Assembly (NCBI GenBank): GCA_963422205.2
Contig: CAXMWX010000011.1
Coordinates: 69,673-133,672, forward strand
DNA length: 64,000 nucleotides
Reading direction: 5' to 3'
From: Gammaproteobacteria bacterium
GTDB lineage: Bacteria; Pseudomonadota; Gammaproteobacteria; Eutrophobiales; Eutrophobiaceae
The notes under the pieces: generated by a model
Told to the model about the DNA's origin: nothing
Seen by the model: only the letters and a program-made list of their open reading frames with translations
Database searches by the model: none
Shown: positions 44,658-60,985 of the stretch, in pieces
Numbering within the stretch: position 1 is the first letter of the stretch
Layout of the letters: each line of letters opens with the position of its first letter
Position numbers and translations under genes: made by a program

Positions 44658-44690
44658 CTTAATCCCGTCTGCCAGTCAGCCGCAGCCCCT

Positions 44691-46094: not shown

Positions 46095-46146
46095 CGCCCT
46101 ATCATAACCCAATCACGGGAAAACACAGCATCCTGCCTGCTTTTAG

Positions 46147-48720
46147 CTAATTGAATTGATAGGAGACTTCCACCATCCAGCGACGTTCGTTGCCCGGATG
46201 GATAAAGGCCCCGCCAAATTCGGGCGCCGGAATGACCTCAGCCAGATAATCGGTATCCAGCAGATTTTTCACGACACCATGCAGCCCCCAGGTATCGCTT
46301 TCAAGGCCAGCACGCAGGTTCACCAGGCTGTAGGAATCACGGGTGGCGTTGGTCTGGTTGGCAAAGCCAAAATTCAGCCCGGTGAACAAGGTCGGTGTTC
46401 TGTCGCCCTCCTGGACTTCGGCAAAACGCGTTGGCCCGACTGCGGCATAATCAAACCGGCCGACAAACTCCACGCCATCAAGAAAACCGCTGGGCTTAAT
46501 CCACTCAGCCCCCAGATTAAAGGTGTATTCAGGCGCATAAGGCACCCGGTTGCCTGCCGTCTGCGGACGATTGCGGTTCTCATCAATGCGCGCATTGGTG
46601 GCGGCCACACCGCCGTAGATACGAAGGGCATCATTAAGCTGCACACTCAGCGCATATTCCGCCCCGGTGATGCTGACCTCATCAATATTCGATACCACAC
46701 GCAACAAGCCGAACGGGCCGACAAAGAAGTTGAATATCTGCATGTTATCAACCAGCGTGTGATAGATCGCCCCCTCCATGCTGACCCGGCCATCGGCAAA
46801 CGTGGATTTAAAGCCCACTTCAAACGCATTGGCTATCTCTTTCTCAAAGCTGTCGCTGATCGTCAGGCCCGCACCAGTTGCCGAGCCCGGATTAAATTCC
46901 GCGGCATTAAAGAATAGATTGACAGTCGCCTGACTGCCCTGATTGTTAAACCCGCCGCTCTTAAAGCCGACGCCCCAGCTCCCGAAAAAAGTCCAGTTCT
47001 CATTGGCATTCCAGCGCAGGCTGATCTTCGGTTGCAACTCCTTAAAGGTCTGCTGCCGGTCGGGGATGCTCTGACGGATCGTGCAGTTGTTGTTGGCATC
47101 AATGCTGAGAAAGGCCGGGTTCAGCGGCGAGCCCTGGCCATCGCCCAGGCCCTGGCAAGGCACCAGCCCCAGCGGAAAGAGCTGAAAGGCATCGGTGTAA
47201 TCGATAAAATCGGAGGTCTGCGTATCCGGTGCGGGCACCAATGATGTCACTTCGCGCTTTTCCCGGTCATAGCGAAGGGCAGCGGCGAGCTCAATCTCCT
47301 CAGTGACATCAAAAGCCACCTGACCAAACACGGCAAGGACTTCCGTGTCGAAACGATCGTACACCAGGGCCTCGGTGGCCGGCCCGATCAAGGCCCGCTG
47401 TAATTCAGCACCAGCGACAAAACCAACGCCGGGATCTTCTATGGTAGCCACACCCACCTCACGCTCCAGGTTCAGATAATACCCGCCCAACTGCCAGCGC
47501 AAGCGCTGCTCGCCCGGCGAGGTTAAGCGCAGTTCAAAGCTGATGTCTTCCTGGTTGCGCTCCTGCCATTGCCCTCCATCACAGGTGGTCGGTGTGTAGG
47601 GGCCAAGCAGGTTGAGCGGACTGTTGACGATGCCAGTGTTGTTCTGCGGCGATGGCAGCGGATCGGTCATGACTGTTGATGCCAGCGTTGCGATGCAGTT
47701 CGGCTCTGCATTAAAAAAACCAAAGGCGGCGCTGGTGCCATCGGCCAGGAAGGATTGATCGATGTCGCTGTACAGCAACCAGCCGGTGGCTGTTGCCCAG
47801 CCCATGTCATAATCTGTCTTGATGGACAGATCGAACGACTGCTGCTCATTTTCCGGACGGATGTTGGGCTGAAAGACAAATTCATGCGTGTTGACATCCT
47901 CATCCAGCAGCGAGTTGCCAAAGGCATTGGCCGCATCTTCCAAGTGAAATGCCACATTAAATGAAATGGAAGCCGCATCCACCTCGCCGTAATGGGCGCG
48001 CAAGTCCACGCTGAGATCCTCACTTGGCTGCCACAGCAAGCGGCCATTGATGTTGTAATTTTCAAAGTCATCGACGATGTCCCTGCCCGGACTGGCACCG
48101 ACATTGACGTTGTTATAAAAACCATCGGTCGTCCGGTAGTCGACATGCAAGCGGCCAGCCAGATCATCGGTCAGGCCACCGCCAGCTTGTGCTGACACAT
48201 AATAGCTGTTGTCGCTGCCGCCCGTGGCGCGGATACCTGCACTCGCCTCCTGCACCGGCTTTTTCGTGGTCACGATAACAGCACCGGCGGCGGCGCTGCG
48301 GCCATACACCGCCCCCTGCGGCCCTTTCAGAATTTCAATCTGCTGCAAGTCGGCAAACTCGCGGTTAAACGCACTGGGGTTGGTGTAGAGGATGCCATCG
48401 ACAATAAAGGCAAAGTTCGCTTCCGCATCTCGGGAGCCATTGATACCACGAATACTCACCTGTGCATCGCCTACCTCGGCGGTGTCGACAAAACTCACGC
48501 CTGGCGTCAGGGCAATAAAATCCTCGGCACGCTCGATGGCCGCACGTTCGATCTCACCGGAGGTAAACGCCGTGATTGTCGCCGGCACATCGGTCAGCAC
48601 CTCTTCACGCTGGCGGGCGGTCACGATAATCTCTTCAATCTGTGCCGATACCGGCAGGGTGATCAGGTAGCTGGCCGCACCGCTGGCAAGCAACAGGCAG
48701 TACGTGGTTAATGGTTTCAT
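46147..48720 (-). CDS. TonB-dependent outer-membrane receptor
   Basis: 857 aa with a signal peptide, a plug domain (EEIIVTARQREEVLTDVP...IEILKGPQGAVYGRSAAAG) and a long beta-barrel ending VEVSYQFN. Confidence 0.88.
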   Translation of the reverse strand: MKPLTTYCLLLASGAASYLITLPVSAQIEEIIVTARQREEVLTDVPATITAFTSGEIERAAIERAEDFIALTPGVSFVDTAEVGDAQVSIRGINGSRDAEANFAFIVDGILYTNPSAFNREFADLQQIEILKGPQGAVYGRSAAAGAVIVTTKKPVQEASAGIRATGGSDNSYYVSAQAGGGLTDDLAGRLHVDYRTTDGFYNNVNVGASPGRDIVDDFENYNINGRLLWQPSEDLSVDLRAHYGEVDAASISFNVAFHLEDAANAFGNSLLDEDVNTHEFVFQPNIRPENEQQSFDLSIKTDYDMGWATATGWLLYSDIDQSFLADGTSAAFGFFNAEPNCIATLASTVMTDPLPSPQNNTGIVNSPLNLLGPYTPTTCDGGQWQERNQEDISFELRLTSPGEQRLRWQLGGYYLNLEREVGVATIEDPGVGFVAGAELQRALIGPATEALVYDRFDTEVLAVFGQVAFDVTEEIELAAALRYDREKREVTSLVPAPDTQTSDFIDYTDAFQLFPLGLVPCQGLGDGQGSPLNPAFLSIDANNNCTIRQSIPDRQQTFKELQPKISLRWNANENWTFFGSWGVGFKSGGFNNQGSQATVNLFFNAAEFNPGSATGAGLTISDSFEKEIANAFEVGFKSTFADGRVSMEGAIYHTLVDNMQIFNFFVGPFGLLRVVSNIDEVSITGAEYALSVQLNDALRIYGGVAATNARIDENRNRPQTAGNRVPYAPEYTFNLGAEWIKPSGFLDGVEFVGRFDYAAVGPTRFAEVQEGDRTPTLFTGLNFGFANQTNATRDSYSLVNLRAGLESDTWGLHGVVKNLLDTDYLAEVIPAPEFGGAFIHPGNERRWMVEVSYQFN

Positions 48721-48831
48721 CGTTCATCTCCTCCAGTTAAGCGATGGCATGGCATTTTAAGTTGCTTATATACAACATATCGCATACGGGTTTTTAAAGT
48801 CGTTGTATTTATAACATAACCCGTCATTTTA

Positions 48832-48841
48832 ATGTATACAT
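48832..48841. promoter_or_regulatory. Candidate GntR/FadR-type operator, perfect palindrome ATGTATACAT
   Basis: 10-bp perfect palindrome in the divergent TonB-receptor/gntR gap. It has the same TGTATACA core as sites at 48965, 55344, 55397 and 58429. Confidence 0.4.
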
Positions 48842-48964
48842 TCGATGTTATCACCACTTTTCTGATCATCTCTCCCATATCGCTGATTTATTTATGAAAA
48901 TACCCTGTATGTTGAATCATGCTGACTGTTGCTCACGTTATCTGGCTGGAGAAATCGTGTTTTT

Positions 48965-48975
48965 ATGTATACGAT
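48965..48975. promoter_or_regulatory. Candidate GntR operator half-degenerate site ATGTATACGAT
   Basis: Lies 20 nt upstream of the trimmed gntR start and shares ATGTATAC with the other sites. Confidence 0.3.
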
Positions 48976-48994
48976 CAGCAGGGGAGGGGAGGCC

Positions 48995-49678
48995 ATGTCG
49001 AAAGCCGTTGAAAAAGCCTATCAACTGATCAGGGAGCGGATACTGTCCGGCGACTATGCGCCGGGCTCTCACTTAAAAGAGGAGGCCATCTCCGAGGAGG
49101 CGGCCGTCAGCCGTACGCCGGTGCGGGAAGCCCTGCGCCGATTGAGCAATGAGCAGTTGGTCAAGTTTATCCCCAACCAGGGGGCCTATGTCAATTCCTG
49201 GGATGAGGACGATGTGGATGTGATTTATGATCTGCGTATCATGCTGGAAGGCTATTCGGCCGCCCGGGCGGCACAGCGCATATCCAATGAAGAGATCGTC
49301 GAATTGGAGGAGTGCATCACAGAGATCGAAAAGCTGTGTGAACAACACTCAAAAGAAAACCACAGGCGCACGATTGAGCATAACCATCGCTTCCACAGCA
49401 TCATCATTGAGGCGGCCAGCAGTGAGCGGGTGCATAAAATGCTGGGCTGGCTGGTCGAGATCCCGATGCTGTTAAAGACAATCGAGCAATACAGTGATGC
49501 GGATGTGGAGAGAAGCAATAACCATCATCGCGAGATCGTCGCGGCGTTTAAGGCCAGAGACAGCGACTGGGCCCGCAGCGTCATGCAGACACATCTGCGT
49601 GCCGCTTACCAGATTTATACCCATGCCGCACCAAACCGCAAGGCCCATCAGACAATGCCATCTTACTCTGCGCCCTGA
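48995..49678 (+). CDS. GntR-family transcriptional regulator, FadR (FCD) subfamily
   Basis: Winged-HTH N-terminus (LKEEAISEEAAVSRTPVREALRRLSNEQLV) and a helical FCD-like C-terminus (HRFHSIIIEAA). Start trimmed to the ATG 48995, preceded by GGGGAGGGGAGG. Confidence 0.85.
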   Translation: MSKAVEKAYQLIRERILSGDYAPGSHLKEEAISEEAAVSRTPVREALRRLSNEQLVKFIPNQGAYVNSWDEDDVDVIYDLRIMLEGYSAARAAQRISNEEIVELEECITEIEKLCEQHSKENHRRTIEHNHRFHSIIIEAASSERVHKMLGWLVEIPMLLKTIEQYSDADVERSNNHHREIVAAFKARDSDWARSVMQTHLRAAYQIYTHAAPNRKAHQTMPSYSAP

Positions 49679-49726
49679 TCTGCTGTTGCCCCGTGTTACC
49701 CGGGCAAACAACCCCATAGCGATGCC

Positions 49727-50320
49727 TTATAATGATACGATATGTTCCAGGACGGCATGGCTATCCAGCACCTCGCCATACTTAGCCTGGATGTCAAACA
49801 GATTCGCCTCGTGTGCCTTGGGATTTCTATCCCCCACTGCCTGCCTTGGCACAAACACGGCAAAGTCGTGCTGCAACGCATCCACGGCGGTTGCACGCAC
49901 ACACCCACTGGTCGTCAAACCGGTGACAATCACAGTATCGGCCTGTTGTGTGCGTAGCTGTGCCGCCAAGTCGGTCTTAAAAAATGCGCTGGCCCAGTTT
50001 TTCTCGATGATTATCTCGTTATCCCGCCGCTGCAAGGCCGGATCGATTTGTACCCAATGGCTGTCAGGCTGAAGCACATTCAACGCAGGCAACTTTTGCC
50101 TGAACACCTTGGCCTGGGTCTCATGCCGGTAGATCACCGTGGTGAAAAATATCGGCAGGGATTTGTTCCGGGCGGCCTCAAGCAATGTTTGATTGGCCGC
50201 AACCACCGCCGGGCAGTCTGATCCCAAAGGACATTCAGGATCGGTAAACCCGTTGATCACATCAACAATCACCAGGCCCGGCCGACGGCCGAGATCAAGT
50301 GCGGTTTTTTCCAGATCCAT
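49727..50320 (-). CDS. Isochorismatase-family cysteine hydrolase (N-carbamoylsarcosine amidase / maleamate amidase-like)
   Basis: 197 aa. Asp (LVIVDVINGF), Lys (IIIEKNWASAFF) and Cys (VTGLTTSGCVRATAVDA) catalytic-triad context. Last gene of the hyu-like operon. Confidence 0.78.
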   Translation of the reverse strand: MDLEKTALDLGRRPGLVIVDVINGFTDPECPLGSDCPAVVAANQTLLEAARNKSLPIFFTTVIYRHETQAKVFRQKLPALNVLQPDSHWVQIDPALQRRDNEIIIEKNWASAFFKTDLAAQLRTQQADTVIVTGLTTSGCVRATAVDALQHDFAVFVPRQAVGDRNPKAHEANLFDIQAKYGEVLDSHAVLEHIVSL

Positions 50321-50353
50321 TCAGCCCGGAGCCAGCGAGCGATACAAATCGGT

Positions 50354-52207
50354 TCAAAAACGGGGGGAGGCAGGTGCAGGCAGATGTGTCTCATCCAGCG
50401 CCCTGGATTTTATCTCATCAATCGTGCCGCCGAAATCGAACAACGCCGGCTCGCCCCGCACACCACGCAACTCATCTCGCAAGGCCGTGGTGGCCGCCTC
50501 ATCCACCTCACCATCGGCATTGATCACAACACCATAACGCGCTGCCCCGTCCCGGGTGACAATGCCACGCAGCACATCCAGCCGGACAAGGGCCGGATCA
50601 CGGGCATAGGGATCACCCCAGCCGCCGCCGCCCCAAGTCGTAAACTCCAGCAGATCGCCCGCCTTGACTGCAATATCCTCACACTTCGATGGCAACCAGG
50701 TATCCGTACCATCAGCCCGGATAAGGTGCTTGCTTGAACGTTGCCCGGGCTGGCCGCCATTAACGCCCCAGGGATAGGTCAGCCAGCGATCATCATGAAT
50801 GGCGATCGTGCCATCGCAAAGAAACCGGTAGCCGACATTGAGCCCGTTACCGCCACGGTGCAGGCCCGCCCCGCCTGAATCAGGCACCGGCGCATAGTGT
50901 TCTATCCGCAAGGGAAAATAGGCTTCGATAAACTCATTTGGTACGTTGGTAAAACCGGGCCAGAGTGAATGACCATCCGGGCCATCGCCGGCAGGGCGAC
51001 CGGGAATGCCACCAAAGCCGATCTGAAATAACTGGAACCACTCGCCATGATCATCGTAGCCGGAGTAGAACAGATGCGGACTGTCGGAAAAACCGGCCGC
51101 ATTCAGCGCCTCTGGAGTACCCTGGCCTAATAACCCGCCCATCACGTCAAAAATTCTGCCCAGGGCATGGGTACGGCCGGACAAGGCCGCCGGATAATCC
51201 GGCTTTAACAAAGACCCTTTCGGTATGCGTACCTCCACCAGATCATAAAAACCATCATTGAACAGAATCTGCGGATCAAACAGATTAATCGTGAAGGCAC
51301 CGAAGAACATCTTGAACATGCGCTCGCTTAAATAAAAATTAATCGAACTCTTCGCCTGGGGGTCGGTGCCGTCAAAATCGAAGATGGCAGTCGCACCTTC
51401 CCGCCAGAGCGTGCATTTAATTTTGTACGGCCCCATGCCAACCCCATCATCACACAGATAATCTTCAAAGGTGCGCGGCTCCTCCGGCACGATCATCTCG
51501 ATGATCTGTTTCATGGCGGCATGGTTGCGTTCCAGCATGATATCCATCGTGCTGTGAAAAATATCATCACCAAAACGCTCCGCCAGCTCAACACAGCGCT
51601 TTGCCGCCGTATTACATGCTGCGACCAGGGCATTAAGGTCAAACCGGTTCCATTGCGGTGTGCGTACGTTATGCAGGATCAACTCCAGCAAATCCTGCTG
51701 CAACACCCCTTGTTTATACAGCTTCACCGGTTTGATACGAATGCCTTCCTGGAAAATCGTCGCCGCATTGATGGGAATACTGCCCGGCACCATGCCGCCG
51801 TTATCGGACATGTGGCCGAACATGGCCGACCAGGCGATGTGCCGTTGCTGCTTGAAGATCGGCACCAGCACGATCCAGTCGGGCAGATGCGATACCGCAC
51901 CATCACACATATACGGATCATTGGTCAGAATGACATCACCTTCTTCAATCTCCTCATCGTATGCCTGCATCAGGCCATGAATAAACGAGCCAAACTGGCC
52001 GACCACCATCTTCCCCTCACGGTTAGCCACCATGGGAAAGCAGTCGCCCTGCTCCCGTATCCCTGGCGACATCGCCGTACGAAACAACACCGCATCCATC
52101 TCAACCCGCACATTACGCAGGGCATTTTCGATGATATCCACCGTCACGGTATCGACTTCAACCCGTTGCAGCGGGGTTTGATTTGCTTCAATAATTTTCG
52201 CTGGCAT
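50354..52207 (-). CDS. Hydantoinase B / oxoprolinase-family protein (ATP-dependent ring-opening amidohydrolase, beta subunit)
   Basis: 617 aa. DTVTVDIIENALRNVRVEMDAVLFRTAMSPGIRE N-terminus and the length are typical of HyuB/OplB-type proteins. Lies 10 nt after the HyuA-like gene. Confidence 0.88.
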   Translation of the reverse strand: MPAKIIEANQTPLQRVEVDTVTVDIIENALRNVRVEMDAVLFRTAMSPGIREQGDCFPMVANREGKMVVGQFGSFIHGLMQAYDEEIEEGDVILTNDPYMCDGAVSHLPDWIVLVPIFKQQRHIAWSAMFGHMSDNGGMVPGSIPINAATIFQEGIRIKPVKLYKQGVLQQDLLELILHNVRTPQWNRFDLNALVAACNTAAKRCVELAERFGDDIFHSTMDIMLERNHAAMKQIIEMIVPEEPRTFEDYLCDDGVGMGPYKIKCTLWREGATAIFDFDGTDPQAKSSINFYLSERMFKMFFGAFTINLFDPQILFNDGFYDLVEVRIPKGSLLKPDYPAALSGRTHALGRIFDVMGGLLGQGTPEALNAAGFSDSPHLFYSGYDDHGEWFQLFQIGFGGIPGRPAGDGPDGHSLWPGFTNVPNEFIEAYFPLRIEHYAPVPDSGGAGLHRGGNGLNVGYRFLCDGTIAIHDDRWLTYPWGVNGGQPGQRSSKHLIRADGTDTWLPSKCEDIAVKAGDLLEFTTWGGGGWGDPYARDPALVRLDVLRGIVTRDGAARYGVVINADGEVDEAATTALRDELRGVRGEPALFDFGGTIDEIKSRALDETHLPAPASPRF

Positions 52208-52217
52208 CGGCTGCTCC

Positions 52218-54275
52218 TCACGGCATGGGCTTGATGATCAGATTGCCCTGGCTGTCGACTGTTGCATCATGAGCGGGTAACACCACCGTGGTTGAATCCA
52301 TTTCAACGATCACCGCCGGGCCGGGAATGACCAGCCCTTCATGCAGTTTCATTCGCTCATAAATCACGATATCGAGCCACTGGCCATCGTAGAAATACTG
52401 GCTGTCCTTGATTTTGCAATCCTCAAGGCGGGTGCCCGCCTCGCCGGTTTTAAGATCAGCCAGCGCTTTTGACCGGGCCTTGACGATAGCGCGAATCATG
52501 ACGATCTCATGGCCCTCGCCCAGGGCAAAGGTGAACAACTGCTCATGTTCGGCATCAAACCTGGCCGTCAGGCCAGCGATGCCATCCCGCTTCAGTTGCT
52601 CCTCGGTGAAATCCAGCGTGATCTGATACGCCTGGCCGGTATAACGCAGATCGGCCTGATAAAGCACTTCCCAGTCAGTCGCCGCAATACCATCGGCCTG
52701 CAAAGAGGCCGATGCTCTGTCTTTCAGCGCCTTTAGATCAGCAAGCAATGTGTCAGTGCCCGCCTCCCTGGCCATGGTGACAGAAGTACGGGCGGCCTCA
52801 TCCTGCACCTGTGTGGTCGCATCACCATAGGCACACAACACCCCCGGCCCGGGCGGCACGATCACCGGCCAGGCCCCGCTCAATACCCCCAGGGCATTGG
52901 CATGCAGGGGCCCAGCACCCCCAAAACCGACCAGGGAGAAATCACGCGGGTCATGCCCCTGCTCAACCGAGACCAGGCGCAGGGCGCCGAACATGGCCTC
53001 GTTGACGATCTTGATGATGCCCTCAGCCGCCGCCATCAGACCAATCTCCATGGCATCGGCCACTTTTTGCACGGCTTTCTCGGCGGCCTGTTTGTTGATC
53101 GCCATCGCACCGCCCAGTTGCACATCGGCAGGCAAATACCCCAGCACCACATTGGCATCACACACCGTCGGCTCCTGCCCGCCTTTCATATAGGCCGCCG
53201 GCCCCGGCACCGCACCTGCCGATGCCGGCCCGACCCGAAGCGCCCGGGTCAACTCCGGCACAAACGCAATCGAGCCGCCGCCCGCCCCGATGGTACGCAC
53301 ATCCATTGAAGGGGCACGTACCCGGACATCGCCAACGATGGTCTCACGCCTGACCTGTGCCTTGCCCTGCTGGATCAGGGCAACATCGGTGGATGTCCCT
53401 CCCATATCCAGCGTCATGATGTTCTCATAACCCGCCCGGCGACAGAAGTAGAGCGCACCCGCCACCCCGCCAGCCGGCCCGGACATGAGCAGATTCACCG
53501 GCGATTCAGCGGCGGCACGGCCAGATGCCAGGCCACCATCAGAGCGCAGGATAGATAACGCCACCTCACCCATCTTGTCCTGCAGGGCGGTTTGCAGATT
53601 GGTCACATAATTTGCCACTTCAGGGCGCACATAGGCATTGACGACTGTGGTCTCGGTGCGCTCGTATTCCTGCATCTCCGGCACCACGGCACTGGAGATG
53701 GAGACAGGGATGTCGGTGAAGATCTCGCGTGCGATTGCCGCGGCTCTGGTTTCATTCTCACCATTGATATATGCGTTGATAAAACAAATCGTCAGCGATT
53801 CCACTTCGTTACGGGCATGCAGAGCCTGCAAGGACTGGCGCAACGCCGCCTCATCCAGCGGCTTGATGATGGTGCCATCGGCCGCCATGCGCTCATCCGC
53901 CTCAACAGTGAGTTCCAGCGGGGCGAGCAAGGGTTTTTTGACATAGCTTACCCAGCCGCCGAGACCACCCGGACAGAATGAACGGGCAACCTGCAATATC
54001 TGCTTAAAACCCCTGGTTGTGACCAGACCGACCCGGGAACCGCGCCCGGTCAGCACGGCATTGGTGGCCACCGTGGTGCCGTGCATGACCCGAGAGATAG
54101 CCGATGGATCAATACCGGATTGCTCGCAGATCCGGGCAATACCACCGAGCACGCCGAGAGAGGGATCCTCCGGTGTAGACGGCACTTTTACCGTGCAGGT
54201 CTGGCCAGTCTGCTCATTGATAAGCAGCAGATCAGTGAACGTGCCGCCGACATCAACACCCAGTCTGTAAGACAT
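52218..54275 (-). CDS. Hydantoinase A / oxoprolinase-family protein (alpha subunit)
   Basis: 685 aa. The YRLGVDVGGTFTDLLL ASKHA-fold phosphate-1 motif and a second DMGGTSTDV motif are typical of HyuA/OplA. Confidence 0.88.
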   Translation of the reverse strand: MSYRLGVDVGGTFTDLLLINEQTGQTCTVKVPSTPEDPSLGVLGGIARICEQSGIDPSAISRVMHGTTVATNAVLTGRGSRVGLVTTRGFKQILQVARSFCPGGLGGWVSYVKKPLLAPLELTVEADERMAADGTIIKPLDEAALRQSLQALHARNEVESLTICFINAYINGENETRAAAIAREIFTDIPVSISSAVVPEMQEYERTETTVVNAYVRPEVANYVTNLQTALQDKMGEVALSILRSDGGLASGRAAAESPVNLLMSGPAGGVAGALYFCRRAGYENIMTLDMGGTSTDVALIQQGKAQVRRETIVGDVRVRAPSMDVRTIGAGGGSIAFVPELTRALRVGPASAGAVPGPAAYMKGGQEPTVCDANVVLGYLPADVQLGGAMAINKQAAEKAVQKVADAMEIGLMAAAEGIIKIVNEAMFGALRLVSVEQGHDPRDFSLVGFGGAGPLHANALGVLSGAWPVIVPPGPGVLCAYGDATTQVQDEAARTSVTMAREAGTDTLLADLKALKDRASASLQADGIAATDWEVLYQADLRYTGQAYQITLDFTEEQLKRDGIAGLTARFDAEHEQLFTFALGEGHEIVMIRAIVKARSKALADLKTGEAGTRLEDCKIKDSQYFYDGQWLDIVIYERMKLHEGLVIPGPAVIVEMDSTTVVLPAHDATVDSQGNLIIKPMP

Positions 54276-54295
54276 ACCATGCCCTCATTGTTATT

Positions 54296-55217
54296 TTACG
54301 TACAAGCCGCCGCCTGGACTGTATTCGGAAACACCCCTGCCCTGCTTACCATCGCCGGCATCGGGGTCGCCAGCGGCTGCTCCAGCCATTTTGCCGTGTC
54401 GATGATTTTTTCAATATCCACGCCCGTCTTTAACCCCATACGGTGAATCATATAGAGCAGGTCCTCGGTGCCGACATTGCCTGTGGCCGCCGGGGCAAAC
54501 GGGCAACCGCCCACACCCCCCGCAGCTGGCATCGAAGATGCTGACACCTTCCATGATAGCCGCATACACATTCGCCACGGCCGTGTTGCGGGTGTTGTGA
54601 AAATGACAGCGCAGAGCAACATCCGGCACCGCCCGTTGGGCCTGTTTGACCAGGCTGGCCACCTCGGCCGGCGTGGCCACACCGATGGTATCGGCCAGGG
54701 CGATCTCGGTAAATCCCATATCAGCCAGCCGCTGACACAGGCCGAGCACTTTGCCCGCCGGTATCTCTCCTTCGAATGGACAACCAAACGCCGCACTCAC
54801 CGTCACCGAGCTACGCAGGGGGGTTGTCTGTATTTCTCTGGCGATCTCGGCAATGACCTGCATGGTCTGCTCGGTTGTTGCGTTCTGGTTACGCTGATTG
54901 AAGGTGTCTGACGCCACCACAGCACAGTTGATTTCATTGATGCGGCTGGCGGCGGCGCGCTCAAACCCGCGCCTGTTCAATACCAGCCCGATGTAGGTGA
55001 CATCATCCCGTTCCGGCAGGCCGGCAATCACCGCCTCGGCATCGGCCATTTGCGGCACCCGTTTGGGATTGACAAAACTCACCACTTCCAGGCGCCGTAT
55101 GCCAGCATCGATCAGGCGGCTGATCAAGGTCAGTTTATGCGTTGTCTCCAGCAGCCTGGCCTGACTCTGCAAACCATCACGGGGAGCAACATCAATAATT
55201 TCGATAAAACCTGTCAT
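54296..55217 (-). pseudogene. HMG-CoA-lyase-like (HMGL/DRE-TIM family) gene interrupted by a +1 frameshift in a G6 run (C6 on the plus strand, 54516..54521)
   Basis: Track ORFs 54411..55304 (N-terminal part, IIDVAPRDGLQS..., HFHNTRN) and 54296..54796 (C-terminal part, GGVGGCPFAPAATGNVGTEDLLYM) are two frames of one gene. Removing one G from GGGGGG restores ...IFDASCGGVGGCPFAP... as a 306-codon ORF ending 20 nt before the HyuA-like start. The span of 922 nt is not divisible by 3. Confidence 0.75.
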
Positions 55218-55303
55218 GGCGTCTCTTAAGAACCCGCTTGCACTTGTTGAAGGCCAGATCATTTTAAGCCAAAGCCCTTGACAAGAGCTACTCGAACAAA
55301 TCA

Positions 55304-55338
55304 ACTTATAAAATCAACTTAAACTTATAAAATCAACT
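55304..55338. repeat. Two exact 16-bp direct repeats ACTTATAAAATCAACT spaced 19 bp apart, with a third partial AATCAACT just upstream
   Basis: Read directly at 55304..55319 and 55323..55338, with AAATCAACT also at 55298..55306. They lie in the 217-bp divergent promoter gap. Confidence 0.7.
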
Positions 55339-55343
55339 CATAA

Positions 55344-55353
55344 TTGTATACAA
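55344..55353. promoter_or_regulatory. Candidate GntR/FadR-type operator, perfect palindrome TTGTATACAA
   Basis: 10-bp perfect palindrome in the divergent lyase-operon/CoA-transferase gap, identical to the site at 58429..58438. Confidence 0.4.
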
Positions 55354-55365
55354 AGAAAAGATATT

Positions 55366-55389
55366 AAGGCATAATAATGCCTTTTTTTT
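55366..55389 (+). terminator. Terminator-like hairpin plus T8 run in the leader of the CoA-transferase gene (possible attenuator)
   Basis: AAGGCAT (55366..55372), AATA loop, ATGCCTT (55377..55383), running into TTTTTTTT (55382..55389). It sits 45 nt upstream of the ATG with no plus-strand gene upstream to terminate. Confidence 0.35.
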
Positions 55390-55396
55390 CCGATAA

Positions 55397-55407
55397 ATGT
55401 ATACAAT
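55397..55407. promoter_or_regulatory. Candidate GntR operator ATGTATACAAT
   Basis: Same TGTATACA core, 28 nt upstream of the CoA-transferase ATG. Confidence 0.35.
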
Positions 55408-55434
55408 AAATGACTCATCTACCTGCCAAACATC

Positions 55435-56649
55435 ATGAACCAGAGAGATGAATTACAACAGCGCGGCCCGCTGGCCGATGTCCGTGTCATTGAAATGGGT
55501 GTGCTTCTGGCCGGGCCGTTCTGTGGTCAGCTGCTGGGGGATTTCGGCGCCGAAGTCATCAAGATAGAACAGCCCGGGGTGGGCGATCCCATGCGTGAAT
55601 GGGGTCAGGAAAAAGCCCAGGGGCATTCGCTGTGGTGGCCGGTCGTGGCGCGGAATAAAAAATCCATCACCTTGAACGCACGGGAAACCGAAGGCCAGCA
55701 GATCATCAAGCAGCTCGTGGCCGAGGCGGATATTCTGATCGAGAACTTCCGTCCTGGCACGATGGAGCGCTGGAACTTGAGCTATGAGGAGTTGGCAGAG
55801 ATCAACCCGCGGCTGATCATGGTGCGTATAACCGGCTTCGGTCAGACCGGCCCTTATGCCAAACAAGCCGGCTATGGCTCGATTGGCGAGGCGATGGGCG
55901 GGCTGCGGTTTGTGGTGGGTGATCCGGACAAACCCCCCAGCCGCATGGGGATCAGCATTGGCGATGAGCTGGCCGCCACCTATGCCTGCCTGGGTGCCTT
56001 GAGTGCCTTGCATGTACGCCAGACCACCGGCCGGGGTCAGGTCGTTGATTCGGCGATTTATGAGGCCGTGTTTGCCATGATGGAGTCCTTGATCCCGGAA
56101 TACCAGATCGGCGGCTATGTGCGCCAGCGCACCGGTTCAATTTTACCTAATGTGGCCCCGGCGAATGCGTATCCTGTCAAAGATGGTGACTATCTGGTCG
56201 CCGCCAACCAGGATACCGTCTTCAAACGCTTTGCTGAGGCCATGGGGCGCCCGGAACTGGCCGAGGATTCGCGTTACGCCACGCACACCGCCCGCGGCAG
56301 ACACCAGCAGGAACTGGACGAGTTGATATCTGCCTGGACACAAACCATGACAGCCGCCGAGTTGCGCGAGAAGATGAACGAACATGGCGTCCCCAGTGGC
56401 AAGATTTATACCGCGGCCGATATGCTGGAGGATGAGCACTTCGCTGCACGCCAGGCCATCGTCTCGGTGCCGCATACGCTGTTTGGTGAGTTGAAGATGC
56501 AGAACGTGTTCCCCCGCATGTCTGACACGCAAGGCAAGGTGCGCTGGCCAGGCCCGGAGCTGGGCGAGCATAACAAGGAAATCTATCAGGACGTGCTGGG
56601 CATGGCGGATGAGCAGATAGCGCAGTTGAAAGAGAAAGGCGTTATCTAG
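55435..56649 (+). CDS. Family III CoA-transferase (CaiB/BaiF type)
   Basis: 404 aa. PLADVRVIEMGVLLAGPFCGQLLGDFGAEVIKIE N-terminus and the interlocked-dimer family pattern, including the catalytic Asp region (GYGSIGEAMGG). Confidence 0.88.
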   Translation: MNQRDELQQRGPLADVRVIEMGVLLAGPFCGQLLGDFGAEVIKIEQPGVGDPMREWGQEKAQGHSLWWPVVARNKKSITLNARETEGQQIIKQLVAEADILIENFRPGTMERWNLSYEELAEINPRLIMVRITGFGQTGPYAKQAGYGSIGEAMGGLRFVVGDPDKPPSRMGISIGDELAATYACLGALSALHVRQTTGRGQVVDSAIYEAVFAMMESLIPEYQIGGYVRQRTGSILPNVAPANAYPVKDGDYLVAANQDTVFKRFAEAMGRPELAEDSRYATHTARGRHQQELDELISAWTQTMTAAELREKMNEHGVPSGKIYTAADMLEDEHFAARQAIVSVPHTLFGELKMQNVFPRMSDTQGKVRWPGPELGEHNKEIYQDVLGMADEQIAQLKEKGVI

Positions 56650-56762
56650 CGTTATCTGGGCGAGCATAACAAGGAAATCTATCAGGACGTGCTGGGCATG
56701 GCGGATGAGCAGATAGCGCAGTTGAAAGAGAAAGGCGTTATCTAGCGTTATCTGGGCGAGCA
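56560..56762. repeat. Exact 96-bp tandem duplication (2 copies plus an 11-bp third start) covering the last 29 sense codons, the stop codon and 6 nt 3' of the CoA-transferase gene
   Basis: 56560..56655 and 56656..56751 are identical base for base on my reading. CTGGGCGAGCA recurs at 56752..56762 and then the sequence diverges. Confidence 0.9.
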
Positions 56763-56766
56763 GATG

Positions 56767-57165
56767 CTAAACCAGCACGTTTGACCCGCTCATATACACA
56801 TACACTTCTTGGAATTTCTCATCGCGAATACGCCAGAAATTGGTATTCTCCAGCCGGGTTTCGTTGCCATCCGTATCAACCAGCTCGGCCACAAAACTGG
56901 CGGCAATGCGACCATTGGCGGCATCTACCGTGCAGGTAAAATCACGATGAATAATGGTCTCGTATGCGCCCATGAAATCAACAAACATGCGCCTGATCTC
57001 TGCCTTGCCGACATGGGTGGTGAAGGCCGTCTGTACGGTCAGCATGGCATTGTCATGAAAACAATCCAACACGGCATCCAGTGCCTTTTTATCCACATTA
57101 CCGAAGTATTTGTGTATCGCCAGATCGATCAGGCCATCGCCATCCAAACGTGATGGATATTGCAT
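56767..57165 (-). CDS. NTF2/SnoaL-like fold protein (paralog 2)
   Basis: 132 aa, small alpha+beta cone-like pattern. Shares YF..VD...L..VLDCFH.DA.L and the C-terminal F..V.VYMSG.N.L with the upstream ORF. Confidence 0.55.
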   Translation of the reverse strand: MQYPSRLDGDGLIDLAIHKYFGNVDKKALDAVLDCFHDNAMLTVQTAFTTHVGKAEIRRMFVDFMGAYETIIHRDFTCTVDAANGRIAASFVAELVDTDGNETRLENTNFWRIRDEKFQEVYVYMSGSNVLV

Positions 57166-57180
57166 AATTATCTCCTCGCC

Positions 57181-57576
57181 TTACTTCAGCAGGTTCTCGC
57201 CGCTCATATAGACAAACACACGGCTGAATTTTCCCTCATGCAGATAGAAACGATTACAGTTTTCATAACGCTGTAGCTCACCGGTCGCCTTTGGCACGAC
57301 TTCAACGGAGAACTGCGAGCATATCGCCTGTGCCTGCGTGTCCACCGTATGGACAAAGTTGCCATGCCAGATCCGGCTGTGTGCATCAAACAGGCCAACG
57401 AACATCGCCTTGATCGCATCCATGCCATCGTGCAAGGTGTTGGAGGTCATCTCCCGTAACGTGGCATCGGCGTGAAAACAATCCAGCACCCGCCCCATGT
57501 CGTCATTATCCACCCCGTGAAAATAACGCTTGGTGACGATGTCCACATAGTAGTCGTAGTGATAGTCGCTCATCAT
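57181..57576 (-). CDS. NTF2/SnoaL-like fold protein (paralog 1)
   Basis: 131 aa, a paralog of 56767..57165 with a 15-nt gap between the two. Confidence 0.55.
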   Translation of the reverse strand: MMSDYHYDYYVDIVTKRYFHGVDNDDMGRVLDCFHADATLREMTSNTLHDGMDAIKAMFVGLFDAHSRIWHGNFVHTVDTQAQAICSQFSVEVVPKATGELQRYENCNRFYLHEGKFSRVFVYMSGENLLK

Positions 57577-57606
57577 GCTAACCTTAGGGTCTGTTGTATT
57601 GATCGA

Positions 57607-58362
57607 TCACGCTGGCTTTTGGATGCGAGAGAGAATCATCGCATCATTCGGTTTTTCAGGGCTGGGGAAGGCCCGCTTGCTGTGGCTGAGGTTGAGTTGC
57701 AGATACATCTCACACAGCTTGTAGGCCACCTGCCCCGGATTGATCACCGGCACGGGTAATCTCTCGGCCAGATAGCCGTGCGACTGGTGCATGGTGGTTG
57801 AGCCCAGCACGATCACACTGGCCGCATCCTCATTGATCGCCCGCAGGCTTTCCTGTTCCAGTTGCTTAAAAACCCCCTCTTCCTTGCCCTCCAGAAGTTC
57901 CTGCAGGTCCGGCCGGGTTTTGATCGAGCGCAACGAGGCACAGCGATGCTCAAGCCCGTACTCTTTCAGCGTCTTGGTGTACAGCGGAAACCATTCATCC
58001 CACATGGTGATCACGGAGAACCTGTGTCCCAGACAACAGGCGATATGGAAGGCCGCCTGCCCCGGCCCGACAACCGGTATCAAGAGCCTGGAACGCAGGG
58101 CATACATGCCGGAATCACTGACCGTATCAATGCACACAGCCGCATAGCCCTCTTCCTCCGCCTGGAGACCCGCTTCAAAGACGCTCATGTCCATAAGCAG
58201 CGTATCGTAGTAGCTGTCGCCCAGCGCCGCCCCCCAACTGACAGCGACAAAATCAACCTCCGCCCCTGGCATCAGCAGGTCTTTCGGTAATTGTGATGCC
58301 CGGTTATCAACACCTGCCTGATCCATGGGAACAGGCACGATAATCTTGATTTTTTTTGTCAT
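57607..58362 (-). CDS. Asp/Glu/hydantoin racemase-superfamily protein (atypical active site)
   Basis: KIKIIVPVP N-terminus, HRFSVITMW, and YGLEHRCASLRSI resembling hydantoin-racemase blocks. Start trimmed to the ATG 58362 (MTKKIKI). Confidence 0.7.
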   Translation of the reverse strand: MTKKIKIIVPVPMDQAGVDNRASQLPKDLLMPGAEVDFVAVSWGAALGDSYYDTLLMDMSVFEAGLQAEEEGYAAVCIDTVSDSGMYALRSRLLIPVVGPGQAAFHIACCLGHRFSVITMWDEWFPLYTKTLKEYGLEHRCASLRSIKTRPDLQELLEGKEEGVFKQLEQESLRAINEDAASVIVLGSTTMHQSHGYLAERLPVPVINPGQVAYKLCEMYLQLNLSHSKRAFPSPEKPNDAMILSRIQKPA

Positions 58363-58428
58363 AACCCAAGCCCTTGCGACTTGACTAATGCAGTAAGCTA
58401 AGAACGGCACTCTATCATCTTTGTTATA

Positions 58429-58438
58429 TTGTATACAA
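58429..58438. promoter_or_regulatory. Candidate GntR/FadR-type operator, perfect palindrome TTGTATACAA
   Basis: Lies 67 nt upstream of the racemase-like start. Identical 10-mer to 55344..55353. Confidence 0.4.
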
Positions 58439-58642: not shown

Positions 58643-60376
58643 TCAAGCCTGCCAGCAATCTGCCCTCTGGTGGTTTTTGATCTGGCCTGTGTCCTCCTGC
58701 TTGCCCTCATCCCCACGCTCATCTTGAGGCAGGTAGAACCAGCGAATTTGCCTGGCGCTTTTCGACAGCGTGATGTTGCCAACGGGTCCGGGGGCCTCAA
58801 CGCCAGCCAAACGCCTTTCCGCTTCACCCAGATAAGGCGTCAGCCGCTTCGGCCGGTTTACTTCATTGGACGATGACCCTCTGCCCACCTCCTGAAAATC
58901 CCACTCACCAAGGCCGGCGTTCAGTGTACGCCTGTTTGCATGGTAGACCCAGATCCCGGTCGCCTCATCATAATCGTAATAAGACAACAGCTTCCAGCCT
59001 TGTTCGGCAATCAGTTCAATGGCACGAATGATATAGTCAGTTGTTTCCGTATCGAAAAAATAATTAAAACTCAATCGCACCCAGCCAGGCCGCATGATGC
59101 TGTTTCCCCGCAAGACCTGCTGTTCCAGTTGCAGGCTGTATTCGCTGTCCATACCCAATAAGTCGTGGGCATAGGGGCCGGCACAGGAGCAGCCGCCGCG
59201 CGCCTGAATACCAAATAAATCATTGAGCAATGCAACGATAAAGCCGTAGTGAAGATATTTATCAAGGCGCTTGATCTGAAAAGACAGTATTGCCAGCCGT
59301 TCAGCCTCCGGGTTGCCGAGAATTTCAATGCAGGGATGTGGAAGGAGTCGGGATATGGACTGTCGGATCAAGGATTGTTCGCGTTGCTCAATTTCCTCCA
59401 TGCCGACTGCCTGTTGTAATTTGAAGGCCAGGCCAGCACGAATGGCACCGATAATGTCAGGCGTACCCCCCTCTTCACGCTTTTCAGGATCATCATGATA
59501 GACATGGTGCCCGGGGCTGACATAGCGGACAGTACCGCCGCCGGGCACCACCGGCGTGGTATTTTTGATCAGCGATTTTTTGACCACCAGGATGCCAGAG
59601 CTGCCTGGCCCGCCAACGAATTTATGCGGCGAGATAAAAACCGCATCCTTGCCAGTATCGCCTTCCGGCCCCTGCCGACCCAGCATGTCTATGCGGGTAT
59701 ACGGTGCGGCGGCGGCATAGTCCCAGCAGGCATAGGCGCCATGTTTCTTTAAAAGGCGAGTGATCCGATCGGTGTCCGTTTTAATACCGGTGACGTTGGA
59801 TGCGGCCGAGAAGCTGCCTATCTTCACTGGCCGGTGTACTGAGGCGATCAACACCTGTTCCAGTTCAGCGATGTCAATATGTCCGTCTTTATTCAGTGAA
59901 ATCCTGACCAGTTCCACTTGGCTTTCCCGCCAGGGCAGCTCGTTGGAATGGTGCTCATAAGGGCCGATCAATACCAGCGGAGTCTCCGGATTGCCGGCAG
60001 GTTTTGAAGACATATACCCCTGCTCAGCGCGTGACAGACACAACAGACCAATCAGCTTGTGAACCGCCGCCGTTGCACCCGCACCGCAGAACAAGACGCA
60101 GTAATCCTGGCTGGCATTGACCGCCTGGCTGATGATTGCCCTGGCTTGTTCCATATAGGCCGTGGTCTGTGCGCCGCTGTAAGAGCTTTCTGTGTGCGTA
60201 TTCGCATAGCAAGGCAACACCTGCGCGCAAATAAAATCCTCAATGAAAGACAGCGCCCGACCCGAGGCCGTGTAGTCGGCATAGACCAGCGGCCTTGAGC
60301 CAAACGGTGTTTGAAACAAGGCGTGCTCACCTATCACCGAATGACGAATTTGATTAATCAGCTTCTGCTGGTGCAT
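58643..60376 (-). CDS. Class V aminotransferase-fold PLP-dependent enzyme (cysteine-desulfurase/lyase-like) with a ~100-aa C-terminal tail
   Basis: 577 aa. YADYTASGRAL...ANTHTESS N-terminal block and SPHKFVGGPGSSGILV (putative PLP-lysine). The tail after ~residue 480 is charged and low-complexity. Confidence 0.7.
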   Translation of the reverse strand: MHQQKLINQIRHSVIGEHALFQTPFGSRPLVYADYTASGRALSFIEDFICAQVLPCYANTHTESSYSGAQTTAYMEQARAIISQAVNASQDYCVLFCGAGATAAVHKLIGLLCLSRAEQGYMSSKPAGNPETPLVLIGPYEHHSNELPWRESQVELVRISLNKDGHIDIAELEQVLIASVHRPVKIGSFSAASNVTGIKTDTDRITRLLKKHGAYACWDYAAAAPYTRIDMLGRQGPEGDTGKDAVFISPHKFVGGPGSSGILVVKKSLIKNTTPVVPGGGTVRYVSPGHHVYHDDPEKREEGGTPDIIGAIRAGLAFKLQQAVGMEEIEQREQSLIRQSISRLLPHPCIEILGNPEAERLAILSFQIKRLDKYLHYGFIVALLNDLFGIQARGGCSCAGPYAHDLLGMDSEYSLQLEQQVLRGNSIMRPGWVRLSFNYFFDTETTDYIIRAIELIAEQGWKLLSYYDYDEATGIWVYHANRRTLNAGLGEWDFQEVGRGSSSNEVNRPKRLTPYLGEAERRLAGVEAPGPVGNITLSKSARQIRWFYLPQDERGDEGKQEDTGQIKNHQRADCWQA

Positions 60377-60523
60377 ACCATAGTCCTGATAAATAAAAAA
60401 ACACTATATTTTATTTACTGATAAATTATTTACTTTTTTTTAGCTTTTTTCGCTAAAATATCATAAATATTTCCATTAATAGACTAAAAATAGAAAAAAT
60501 ATTTCGATAACAAAGAGTATAAC

Positions 60524-60985
60524 GTGGACAAGTTCGATAAAGACATACTGAAGCTGTTGCAACAAGATGCCAGCCTGCCGCTGGCTGAGTTGGCCGAGTT
60601 GGTTTCCCTGTCAAAAACGGCCTGCTGGCGGCGGCTGCAAAAATTGCAGGCCAATGGCGTGATCACAGCACGCATCTGCCTCCTGGATGCAAAGAAACTG
60701 AATCTGTCATTGACGGTGTTTATTTCCGTGCGTACCAATCGGCATGATCGGGACTGGCTGGATAACTTCGCCGAAGTCGTCACCGCCCTTCCTGAAATCC
60801 AGGAGATCTACCGTATGAGTGGCGATCTGGATTATCTGCTGCGCGCCACCGTCACCGACATGGCAGGTTATGATGCGTTGTATAAAAAATTAATCCGGAA
60901 TGTTTCTCTGTATGATATCAGCGCCAGTTTCGTGATGGAGACCATCAAACGCACAACGCAACTGCCCCTGACTTACATGGATTAA
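60524..60985 (+). CDS. Lrp/AsnC-family transcriptional regulator
   Basis: 153 aa. LDKFDKDILKLLQQDASLPLAELAELVSLSKTACWRRLQKLQANGVI HTH and a C-terminal RAM-like domain. GTG start. Divergent from the PLP enzyme across a very AT-rich 147-bp gap. Confidence 0.85.
   Translation: MDKFDKDILKLLQQDASLPLAELAELVSLSKTACWRRLQKLQANGVITARICLLDAKKLNLSLTVFISVRTNRHDRDWLDNFAEVVTALPEIQEIYRMSGDLDYLLRATVTDMAGYDALYKKLIRNVSLYDISASFVMETIKRTTQLPLTYMD

Follow-up and report, generated by a model that had tools for sequence, protein, structure and literature searches.

Creatinine catabolism through N-methylhydantoin pairs an ATP-dependent ring opener, HyuA/HyuB, with an isochorismatase-fold cysteine amidase that acts next, and the genes for the two lie side by side. 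Homologs of this pair occur in the stretch of DNA analyzed here (the window), 64,000 nucleotides of contig CAXMWX010000011.1 from a genome of the gammaproteobacterial family Eutrophobiaceae (GenBank assembly GCA_963422205.2), where they form part of a ten-gene cluster at 46147-58437. Unlike the creatinine pathway, the window cluster has no creatinine deaminase or sarcosine-oxidizing enzyme, and it adds a coenzyme A (CoA)-transferase, an enzyme of the HMGL family, two NTF2 proteins, a racemase homolog without the catalytic cysteines, and a TonB-dependent receptor. Identity with the creatinine pathway was rejected because its flanking enzymes are missing both from the window and from the families conserved in 80 related loci. 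Based on sequence comparisons, we consider it likely that the region is a single regulon, controlled by a GntR/FCD protein, for the catabolism of a nitrogen-containing heterocycle (N-heterocycle).

Other described systems share parts of this design. The lower pathway of nicotinate and nicotine catabolism (NicF/Ami with NicE) also pairs an isochorismatase-fold amidase of C4 amic acids with a member of the Asp/Glu racemase superfamily. However, the racemase homolog of the window is of the allantoin-racemase type, has no nucleophilic cysteine, and cannot act like the maleate isomerase NicE, and the amic acid would arise here by ATP-dependent ring opening rather than through a ring-cleaving dioxygenase. 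Cyclic-imide metabolism in Blastobacter, in which an imidase and a half-amidase convert a cyclic imide to an amic acid and then to a dicarboxylate and ammonia, follows the same logic as the pathway proposed below, but it uses ATP-independent metal imidases and an unrelated half-amidase and has no CoA-transferase/lyase module. In the anaerobic indoleacetate cluster, which encodes the hydantoinase-like IaaCE, opening of the ring is likewise linked to activation of a substituted succinate with CoA. CapAB, OplAB, and IaaCE are two-subunit ATP-dependent lactam openers, as HyuA and HyuB of the window are predicted to be, with a metal tetrad as in the window HyuB (PMC8453981), but their partners and regulon differ, and the caprolactamase equivalogs are far from being reached.

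The remaining genes recall the branched C5-dicarboxylate routes (itaconate/methylsuccinate, and succinate-hydroxymethylglutarate CoA-transferase with 3-hydroxy-3-methylglutaryl [HMG]-CoA lyase), in which a family III CoA-transferase acts on a branched (hydroxy)dicarboxylate and a lyase then yields acetyl-CoA and an oxo acid. In contrast to the itaconate (Ict/Ich/Ccl) cluster, the window lyase belongs to the HMGL family and not to HpcH/CitE, the cluster contains no MaoC hydratase or acyl-CoA dehydrogenase, and we assign hydration or isomerization to an uncharacterized trio, the racemase-like protein and the two NTF2 proteins. Only in Pseudomonas are itaconate-type genes found beside the trio, which there directly adjoins a cluster of this type (PMC12290011). 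Membership in each of these named pathways fails on at least one tested defining feature, and none of the ten proteins reaches an NCBIfam equivalog cutoff. The front end appears to resemble two known steps, that of N-methylhydantoin in creatinine catabolism and that of maleamate in nicotinate catabolism, and the back end the citramalate/HMG routes. The cluster as a whole is an uncharacterized combination of known enzyme families and one module of unknown chemistry. We found no description of it in full-text literature searches made for that purpose or in NCBIfam, in agreement with an earlier examination of the letters and open reading frames (ORFs) of this DNA (the sequence-only reading), which had recognized no described pathway of this composition.

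To define the unit, we scanned genomes, one per species, with the two most conserved racemase-like peptides and confirmed at least 586 loci. The best 80 of these, taken with 10 kb on either side, were compared with all window proteins, and the locus counts given here refer to those 80. The racemase-like protein was matched in all 80 loci and each NTF2 protein in 77, and the racemase-like gene was flanked by both NTF2 genes in 77. The CoA-transferase lay within 10 kb in 55 loci, the lyase in 54, HyuA and the GntR regulator in 45 each, HyuB in 44, the receptor in 41 (orthologs 40 to 51% identical), and the cysteine hydrolase in 33. The full ten-gene set is found in many Sphingomonadales (Erythrobacter, Porphyrobacter, Altererythrobacter, Croceicoccus, Parasphingorhabdus, and Novosphingobium), in Acidovorax delafieldii, and in several gammaproteobacterial genomes. 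In alpha-, beta-, and gammaproteobacteria, represented by Sphingomonadales, Acidovorax, Halieaceae-like gammaproteobacteria, and Thiohalocapsa, the genes occur in at least nine different orders. The receptor gene of Sphingomonadales, for example, is downstream of the racemase-like and NTF2 genes and has their orientation, and in three loci (L005, L016, and L027) genes from both halves of the cluster are grouped on one strand, uninterrupted by any gene of the other strand. The lyase gene heads the HyuAB operon here and in most loci. Because membership is kept despite the shuffled order, the association probably reflects function rather than inheritance as a block.

The ten genes also share a DNA motif. 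The octamer TGTATACA occurs four times in the window, all within the three promoter regions of the unit, against an expected count of 0.51, and none of 100 shuffled sequences reached four copies. Either the perfect palindrome TTGTATACAA or its core TGTATACA is found at 48833, 55345, 55398, and 58430. The copy at 48833-48840 (TGTATACA) is in the intergenic region between the receptor gene and the regulator gene, those at 55345-55352 and 55398-55405 are in the divergent lyase/CoA-transferase promoter region, and that at 58430-58437 (TTGTATACAA) precedes the racemase-like gene by 68 bp. The octamer is upstream of both the lyase gene and the racemase-like gene in about 40 of the 45 loci that have HyuA together with the racemase-like gene, and these loci span three proteobacterial classes. 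It is conserved 42 to 130 bp ahead of the racemase-like gene in most loci with the cluster (type 1) and in some loci with the trio only. A scan for promoters and terminators returned counts near chance, and with that limit, the operator at 48833-48840 overlaps a minus-strand promoter-like site and that at 55345-55352 overlaps a promoter-like site for the CoA-transferase.

The candidate regulator is encoded within the unit (48929-49678, plus strand), has GntR winged-helix and FadR-type FCD domains (PF00392 and PF07729), and probably starts at a later ATG. Loci that have an FCD-type GntR gene also have TGTATACA sites, and the five loci with HyuA and the racemase-like gene that lack this regulator also lack the octamer; three of the five carry a different regulator, PrpR-like or of the UTRA type. 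GntR/FadR systems combine a winged-helix/FCD protein with a palindromic operator that has a GT...AC core and recurs at the promoters of the target genes. Based on sequence conservation, the octamer is the phylogenetic footprint of a putative GntR/FadR-type operator. It joins the receptor gene to the lyase-HyuAB-hydrolase operon, the CoA-transferase gene, and the racemase-like/NTF2 operon as one regulon, of which the GntR/FCD protein is the probable repressor.

Co-location and the shared operator therefore delimit one conserved unit of ten genes at 46147-58437, which does not reach 60985. The sequence-only reading had drawn a single ~15-kb locus from 46147 to 60985. The ten genes to 58437 hold together as it proposed, but the last two, encoding a class V pyridoxal phosphate (PLP) enzyme (58643-60376, minus strand; 577 residues; PF00266) and Lrp (60524-60985, plus strand; no family listed), fall outside. 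We rejected both as members since the PLP enzyme was found in 1 and Lrp in none of the 80 loci and neither has the operator; no TGTATACA occurs in the region between them (60377-60523). The very high AT content of that region and its long A and T tracts are typical of Lrp-bound promoters and unlike the operator regions of the cluster. In the closest relative, locus L006, a PLP gene is adjacent too, but at the opposite end of the cluster, downstream of the hydrolase (L006 19794-20735); the two PLP enzymes are 63% identical over the first 320 residues, where the L006 locus ends. The window enzyme is SufS-like, scores far below the SufS cutoffs, and may be a lineage-specific accessory.

Other neighbors were likewise not part of the unit: phaC, cutA, and the ABC exporter were each absent from all 80 loci. 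LeuC and leuD were considered as pathway genes and rejected, since both products pass the NCBIfam isopropylmalate isomerase equivalog cutoffs and the genes occur near the cluster in just 2 (leuC) and 5 (leuD) loci. In the window, leuC and leuD (44019-46112) lie on the strand of the receptor gene, begin 34 bp past its stop codon, and are followed by phaC, whereas leuA and leuB are not in the vicinity. Transcription from the receptor promoter may extend into leuC and leuD, whose product can also hydrate citraconate.

The presumed uptake step is the TonB-dependent receptor (46147-48720, minus strand; 857 residues), which has plug and beta-barrel domains (PF07715 and PF00593) and reaches no NCBIfam equivalog cutoff. 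HyuA (52218-54275, minus strand) has three full-length hydantoinase A domains (N-terminal PF05378, PF01968, and C-terminal PF19278), and HyuB (50354-52207, minus strand) is a full-length match to PF02538. The best PDB matches of HyuA were N-methylhydantoinase (7hk5; E value, 3.5e-131) and the caprolactamase alpha subunit (1.8e-116), followed by carboxylases (1e-64 to 9e-83), and those of HyuB were N-methylhydantoinase (7hk5; 4.1e-73) and CapB (7e-51). In bits, HyuA and HyuB scored 442 and 250 against N-methylhydantoinase, 393 and 177 against caprolactamase, and 225 to 282 and 60 to 129 against acetophenone and acetone carboxylases. All four metal ligands of CapB (6yra_B), Asp41, His99, Asp102, and His124, which make up its Asp-His-Asp-His site (PMC8453981), are kept in the HyuB alignment. 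The gate residue is Asp, which the hydrolases and acetophenone carboxylase also have; in acetone carboxylase it is Glu (PMC8453981). Caprolactamase and acetone or acetophenone carboxylase identities were rejected because scores were below the curated cutoffs; for the caprolactamase equivalogs NF050156 and NF050157, they were 531 and 191 bits versus a cutoff of 1000. Similarity thus points to HyuA as the ATP-binding half and HyuB as the metal-dependent ring-opening half of an ATP-dependent hydantoinase/lactamase.

Downstream in the same operon, in which intergenic gaps between lyase, HyuA, HyuB, and hydrolase genes are 10 to 33 bp, is the isochorismatase-fold cysteine hydrolase (49727-50320, minus strand; PF00857). 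Its PDB matches include 26st (7.7e-47), Ami (4l07; 1.8e-37), 1nba (3.7e-37), and NicF (3ot4; 3.1e-31). The nucleophilic cysteine, in the motif TSGCVRA, aligns with the Cys-to-Ala site of 4l08, and the Asp20, Lys107, and Cys140 columns of the Asp-Lys-Cys triad are conserved in 34 orthologs. By sequence, the protein appears to belong to the N-carbamoylsarcosine amidase/maleamate amidase clade, with roughly equal similarity to both. The substrates of these two enzymes are isosteric, each having a carboxylate that a two-atom linker joins to a primary amide or ureido group, and both derive from five-membered rings; therefore, the front end most probably opens a five-membered cyclic amide and then removes ammonia from the resulting amic acid. 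The sequence-only reading had likewise recognized in HyuAB and the isochorismatase-fold amidase the logic of the N-methylhydantoin and N-carbamoylsarcosine steps, to which the equal proximity to maleamate amidases is now added.

The CoA-transferase gene (55435-56649, plus strand) encodes a family III (CaiB/Frc-type) enzyme that covers positions 1 to 366 of the 366 in PF02515 (3.8e-128). It matches PDB entry 4ed9 (1e-73) and the human succinate-hydroxymethylglutarate CoA-transferase (3.5e-66), and orthologs in type 1 loci are 55 to 79% identical. NCBIfam scores suggest a resemblance to dicarboxylate transferases in general. Specific identities were rejected, with the glutarate, mesaconate, oxalate, formyl-CoA, and carnitine CoA-transferase equivalogs all below cutoff (best score, 290 versus 750 bits). 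A 96-bp perfect tandem duplication (2.1 copies; 56560-56762) repeats the final 30 codons and stop codon of this gene straight after its stop, leaving the ORF undisturbed; it may be an assembly artifact or a recent duplication.

The HMGL-like lyase (approximately 54296-55217, minus strand; PF00682) narrowly passes the cutoff of the HMG-CoA lyase subfamily NF004283 (261 versus 246 bits). It lies far from any leucine-catabolic gene. Taken together, the narrow pass and this distance suggest a divergent paralog that probably acts on a different 3-hydroxy-3-substituted acyl-CoA. A +1 frameshift interrupts the gene within six consecutive Gs of the minus strand (54516-54521), so that the N-terminal 242 residues, with the motifs PRDGLQ and HFHNTR, are in frame -3 and the C-terminal 74 residues, with GGCPFAP, are in frame -1. 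Searched by tblastn, the intact 305-residue ortholog from L006 was 64% identical in frame -3 (55217-54492) and 70% identical in frame -1 (54526-54305), and orthologs elsewhere are intact at 305 residues. The annotated 297-residue HMGL ORF (54411-55304) is an artifact of the frameshift, and the intact gene would span 55217 to approximately 54296. The frameshift may be a homopolymer sequencing error or a recent inactivating mutation, that is, a pseudogene. The CoA-transferase and lyase pair is a conserved partner of the HyuAB/hydrolase front end, as the sequence-only reading proposed, although its lyase is not encoded in one frame in this sequence. In Chloroflexus, an HMGL-family (R)-citramalyl-CoA lyase adjoins a family III citramalate CoA-transferase.

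The third transcription unit encodes the trio, with gaps of 15 to 30 bp between its genes: the racemase-like protein (57607-58362, minus strand), NTF2/SnoaL-like protein a (57181-57576, minus strand; 131 residues; PF12680), and NTF2/SnoaL-like protein b (56767-57165, minus strand; 132 residues; PF12680). The racemase-like protein matches PF01177 (2.6e-28) and starts 16 codons inside its ORF, giving 251 residues. In Foldseek, its predicted model (mean pLDDT, 80) superposed on the allantoin racemases of Klebsiella and Pseudomonas with TM scores of 0.77 to 0.81. Thr80 and Ser188 occupy the positions of Cys79 and Cys184 in the Klebsiella enzyme, so the catalytic cysteine pair, which is essential and conserved throughout the superfamily, is absent. 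The motifs around these residues (IDTVSDSG and LGSTTMHQS) are kept in at least 95% of 79 homologs, and the replacements are also retained in relatives with ~50% identity. Cys-to-Ser mutants of OpaE keep 5% or less of their activity (PMC12661438). With both cysteines replaced, the protein appears to have the fold of an allantoin/hydantoin racemase but cannot be a two-thiol racemase, contrary to the sequence-only suggestion that a hydantoin-racemase-like protein fit hydantoin chemistry. Its 64 to 87% identity across three proteobacterial classes indicates that it is under strong selection.

NTF2 proteins a and b are paralogs, always adjacent to one another and to the racemase-like gene in the 77 loci where they are present, and Tyr18, Phe19, Asp23, His49, His71, Asp79, and Asn106 are invariant in both. 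Single NTF2 sequences had no significant match in the PDB; a joint profile weakly matched ketosteroid isomerases and an epoxide hydrolase (2.6e-5 to 5e-4). In this weak match, Tyr18 aligns with Tyr14, the oxyanion-hole residue of the Comamonas isomerase. Both the racemase and the NTF2 folds are used to stabilize enolate-type intermediates. By analogy with these folds, we infer that the trio may catalyze an isomerization or hydration next to a carbonyl or carboxyl group.

The trio is an independent module, with at least 586 genome loci, and its neighbors elsewhere bear on its substrate. A second architecture, in Pseudomonas, Rhodanobacter, and Dokdonella (L023, L025, L028, L029, L030, and L037), has in order the trio, a CoA-transferase, an HMGL paralog, and a BNR/YCF48-like protein; the CoA-transferase is distant from the window protein (25 to 29% identity), and the HMGL paralog is 38 to 42% identical. 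Two ~700-residue FMN/FAD reductases of the old yellow enzyme (OYE) type follow the trio in most Pseudomonas loci but not in Rhodanobacter or Dokdonella, and in Rhodanobacter, MMPL, DUF1302, and DUF1329 genes follow the BNR gene. In Pseudomonas sp. MYb185 (L025 7530-18904), an itaconate-type cluster of MmgE/PrpD, CoA-transferase, HpcH lyase, and tripartite ATP-independent periplasmic (TRAP) transporter genes is upstream of the trio, as is a gene for a 735-residue carboxylesterase. The MmgE/PrpD protein of the Pseudomonas itaconate cluster is the (S)-(R)-methylsuccinate isomerase, and the known substrates of MmgE/PrpD enzymes all have a C4 1,4-dicarboxylate backbone (PMC12290011). Further neighbors include MmgE/PrpD (L015 and L017), a LeuD-like subunit (L032), a medium-chain dehydrogenase/reductase (MDR)-type reductase (L004, L008, L018, and L081), FAD_binding_2 and FAD_binding_4 flavoproteins, ene-reductases, and a signature amidase. 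In several Halieaceae genomes, the trio stands alone, beside unrelated genes or an enoyl-CoA hydratase. Transporters and other neighbors in loci that lack the receptor gave no clue to the substrate. Based on these annotations, neighbors of the trio elsewhere appear to act on substituted C4-dicarboxylates, a theme that favors a route from an imide to a C4-dicarboxylate.

A third architecture, found in Neorhizobium and Tistrella, supports a functional link between the trio-like proteins and the ring opener. An operon on a Neorhizobium petrolearium plasmid (L084 339-10421) encodes MmgE/PrpD, a lyase of the isocitrate lyase/phosphoenolpyruvate (PEP) mutase family, HyuB, HyuA, and a cysteine hydrolase and ends with a fusion of tautomerase and DUF4440 (NTF2-like) domains, a FAD_binding_2 oxidoreductase, and two cysteine-less racemase-like paralogs. 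Its HyuB and HyuA are 31% and 37% identical to those of the window, and the catalytic positions of the second racemase-like paralog of this architecture are still more degenerate. A similar set without HyuB, HyuA, and the cysteine hydrolase is present on Tistrella mobilis pTM1 (L083 7776-14800). The Neorhizobium case implies that a ring opener, a cysteine amidase, a cysteine-less racemase homolog, an NTF2-like protein, and a lyase acting on a 2-hydroxy-dicarboxylate were assembled at least twice from different family members. There, the isocitrate-lyase-family enzyme stands in for the CoA-transferase and HMGL pair; this lyase family acts on free alkylmalates.

We propose the following pathway. 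The receptor would import a small N-heterocyclic compound, and HyuA/HyuB would use ATP to open a five-membered cyclic amide. The cysteine hydrolase would cleave the amic acid, which has a four-atom backbone, releasing ammonia and most probably an alkyl-substituted succinate or maleate. The trio would hydrate or isomerize this product to a citramalate- or HMG-like 2-hydroxy-2-alkyl dicarboxylate, which the family III CoA-transferase would convert to a CoA thioester. The HMG-CoA-lyase-family enzyme would split the 3-hydroxy-3-substituted acyl-CoA (for example, a citramalyl-CoA or HMG-CoA analog) into an acyl-CoA and an oxo acid. For citraconimide, as an example, the route would run through citraconamate, citraconate, citramalate, and citramalyl-CoA to pyruvate and acetyl-CoA, giving each gene one role with no step missing. 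Two precedents fit this route, the neighboring lyase and CoA-transferase genes of Chloroflexus noted above and the N-methylhydantoinase of Pseudomonas putida 77, which reportedly hydrolyzes succinimide and glutarimide, although a literature search gave no support for imide hydrolysis by this enzyme. The evidence points to a ring that yields a substituted C4-dicarboxylate after opening and deamidation rather than to a creatinine-like ureide. As the substrate class, we favor an alkyl-substituted cyclic imide of the maleimide or succinimide type on the sequence evidence, with a hydantoin-type ureide as the main alternative. The version of the pathway that runs specifically from an imide to a C4-dicarboxylate is tentative, appreciably less secure than the general scheme of a regulon for N-heterocycle catabolism. 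As a compromise between the two, we hold our overall best explanation with moderate confidence.

Several points weigh against this proposal. The substrate is purely inferred. Imide hydrolysis is exergonic and known imidases are ATP free, so an ATP-dependent opener argues for a stabler lactam or an N-substituted hydantoin. Among PDB entries, those closest to HyuA, HyuB, and the hydrolase are the two creatinine-pathway enzymes. Hydration or isomerization by the trio is deduced entirely from fold relatives and gene neighbors, and the trio also occurs without HyuAB, the amidase, the CoA-transferase, or the lyase nearby, and is therefore not dependent on the other cluster genes. Finally, the frameshifted lyase may leave the pathway broken in this window, unless the frameshift is a sequencing error.

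The creatinine relatives suggest a route in which the substrate of HyuAB would be a hydantoin with an N or 5 substituent, the hydrolase would remove the carbamoyl group from the resulting N-carbamoyl amino acid, and the other genes would process the amino acid or a side chain. Such a route would account for the nearest solved structures (N-methylhydantoinase and N-carbamoylsarcosine amidohydrolase, the latter at 7.7e-47), for a third partner with the allantoin/hydantoin racemase fold, and for the use of ATP, which suits rings whose opening is unfavorable. We nevertheless consider it unlikely. No creatinine deaminase, sarcosine oxidase or dehydrogenase, aminotransferase, or ammonia-lyase is present in the window or conserved in the 80 related loci; the racemase homolog has lost both catalytic cysteines; and the hydrolase resembles maleamate amidases about as closely as it does the N-carbamoylsarcosine amidase of Arthrobacter. 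An amino acid product would also leave unexplained both the conserved dicarboxylate-type CoA-transferase with its lyase and the isocitrate-lyase-family replacement in Neorhizobium.

The trio can stand by itself or have different neighbors, namely two OYE-type reductases, an esterase, and BNR, MMPL, DUF1302, and DUF1329 proteins in Pseudomonas and Rhodanobacter, and HyuAB families are known to function without such partners. Both points would fit two unrelated modules traveling together with different substrates, a lactam or ureide opener (HyuAB and hydrolase) and a branched-acid module (trio, CoA-transferase, and lyase). This is rather improbable given that a single operator type, conserved across classes, serves all three transcription units, that the lyase gene is the first in the HyuAB operon here and in most loci, that the three one-strand loci noted above mix genes of both modules, and that Neorhizobium independently links distant HyuAB and hydrolase proteins with racemase-like ones. 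We regard as highly improbable that HyuAB is an acetone/acetophenone-type carboxylase making a beta-keto acid for CoA activation. Carboxylases belong to the same superfamily and are among the PDB matches, but their scores are far lower than those of the hydrolases for both subunits, there is no gene for a carboxylase gamma or epsilon subunit, the gate residue is Asp and not the Glu of acetone carboxylase (PMC8453981), and the conserved amidase partner would have no role. The trio could also be a new cofactor-independent hydratase/isomerase of alkyl-maleates or maleimides that works through an enolate in the old racemase oxyanion hole. The regulon would then be a previously unrecognized means for aquatic bacteria to scavenge, with the TonB-dependent receptor, monopyrrolic imide or lactam fragments (maleimides or pyrrolinones) from photo-oxidized tetrapyrroles; this is a long shot. 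If true, the fragments would come from chlorophylls, bacteriochlorophylls, heme, and bilins, and examples such as methyl-vinyl-maleimide, methyl-ethyl-maleimide, and haematinic-acid-type compounds would be turned into ammonia, acyl-CoA, and oxo acids.

The cluster is distributed among aquatic and soil bacteria, and its compound is evidently worth import by an outer membrane receptor to many of the aquatic ones. The regulon is tractable, with one regulator, an 8-bp operator, and three transcription units, and cultured hosts include Erythrobacter, Porphyrobacter, Altererythrobacter, Parasphingorhabdus marina, and Acidovorax delafieldii. With the substrate identified, models of dissolved organic matter turnover would gain a pathway yielding nitrogen and carbon, and functions could be given to the racemase-like family (at least 586 loci in species-representative genomes) and its NTF2 partners. 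It would also add a case of a racemase scaffold that lacks both catalytic cysteines yet is under strong purifying selection and enlarge a still small group of biocatalytically interesting enzymes, the ATP-dependent cyclic-amide hydrolases. Nothing about the cluster contradicts current understanding.

The gene content recorded in the sequence-only reading held up well. All twelve genes that it listed are present where it placed them, with extents corrected for the frameshifted lyase and the start of the racemase-like gene, and every Pfam family that it predicted was found (PF01968, PF02538, PF00857, PF00682, PF02515, PF01177, PF12680, PF00266, and PF00593). Its two operons fit the short intergenic gaps. 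It had reasoned that genes never co-located elsewhere and not co-regulated would speak against its locus; instead, ten of the twelve lie near one another in many genomes, in varying order, and they share a conserved operator at three promoter regions. The pathway proposed here keeps the general logic of that reading, which is thus partly supported.

The remainder of the window consists of housekeeping genes (lpxB/D, bamA, rseP, dxr, cdsA, uppS, pyrH, tsf, rpsB, glnD, leuCD, phaC, cutA, and an MsbA-like exporter), and the cluster is therefore a discrete insert in the core chromosome. A 480-residue ORF at 23093-24535 (minus strand) has no Pfam family at an E value of 1e-6 or lower. At 38963-41199 (minus strand), and unrelated to the cluster, is a betaine/choline-type ABC transporter in which the substrate-binding domain and permease are fused (494 residues) and adjoin an ATPase gene.

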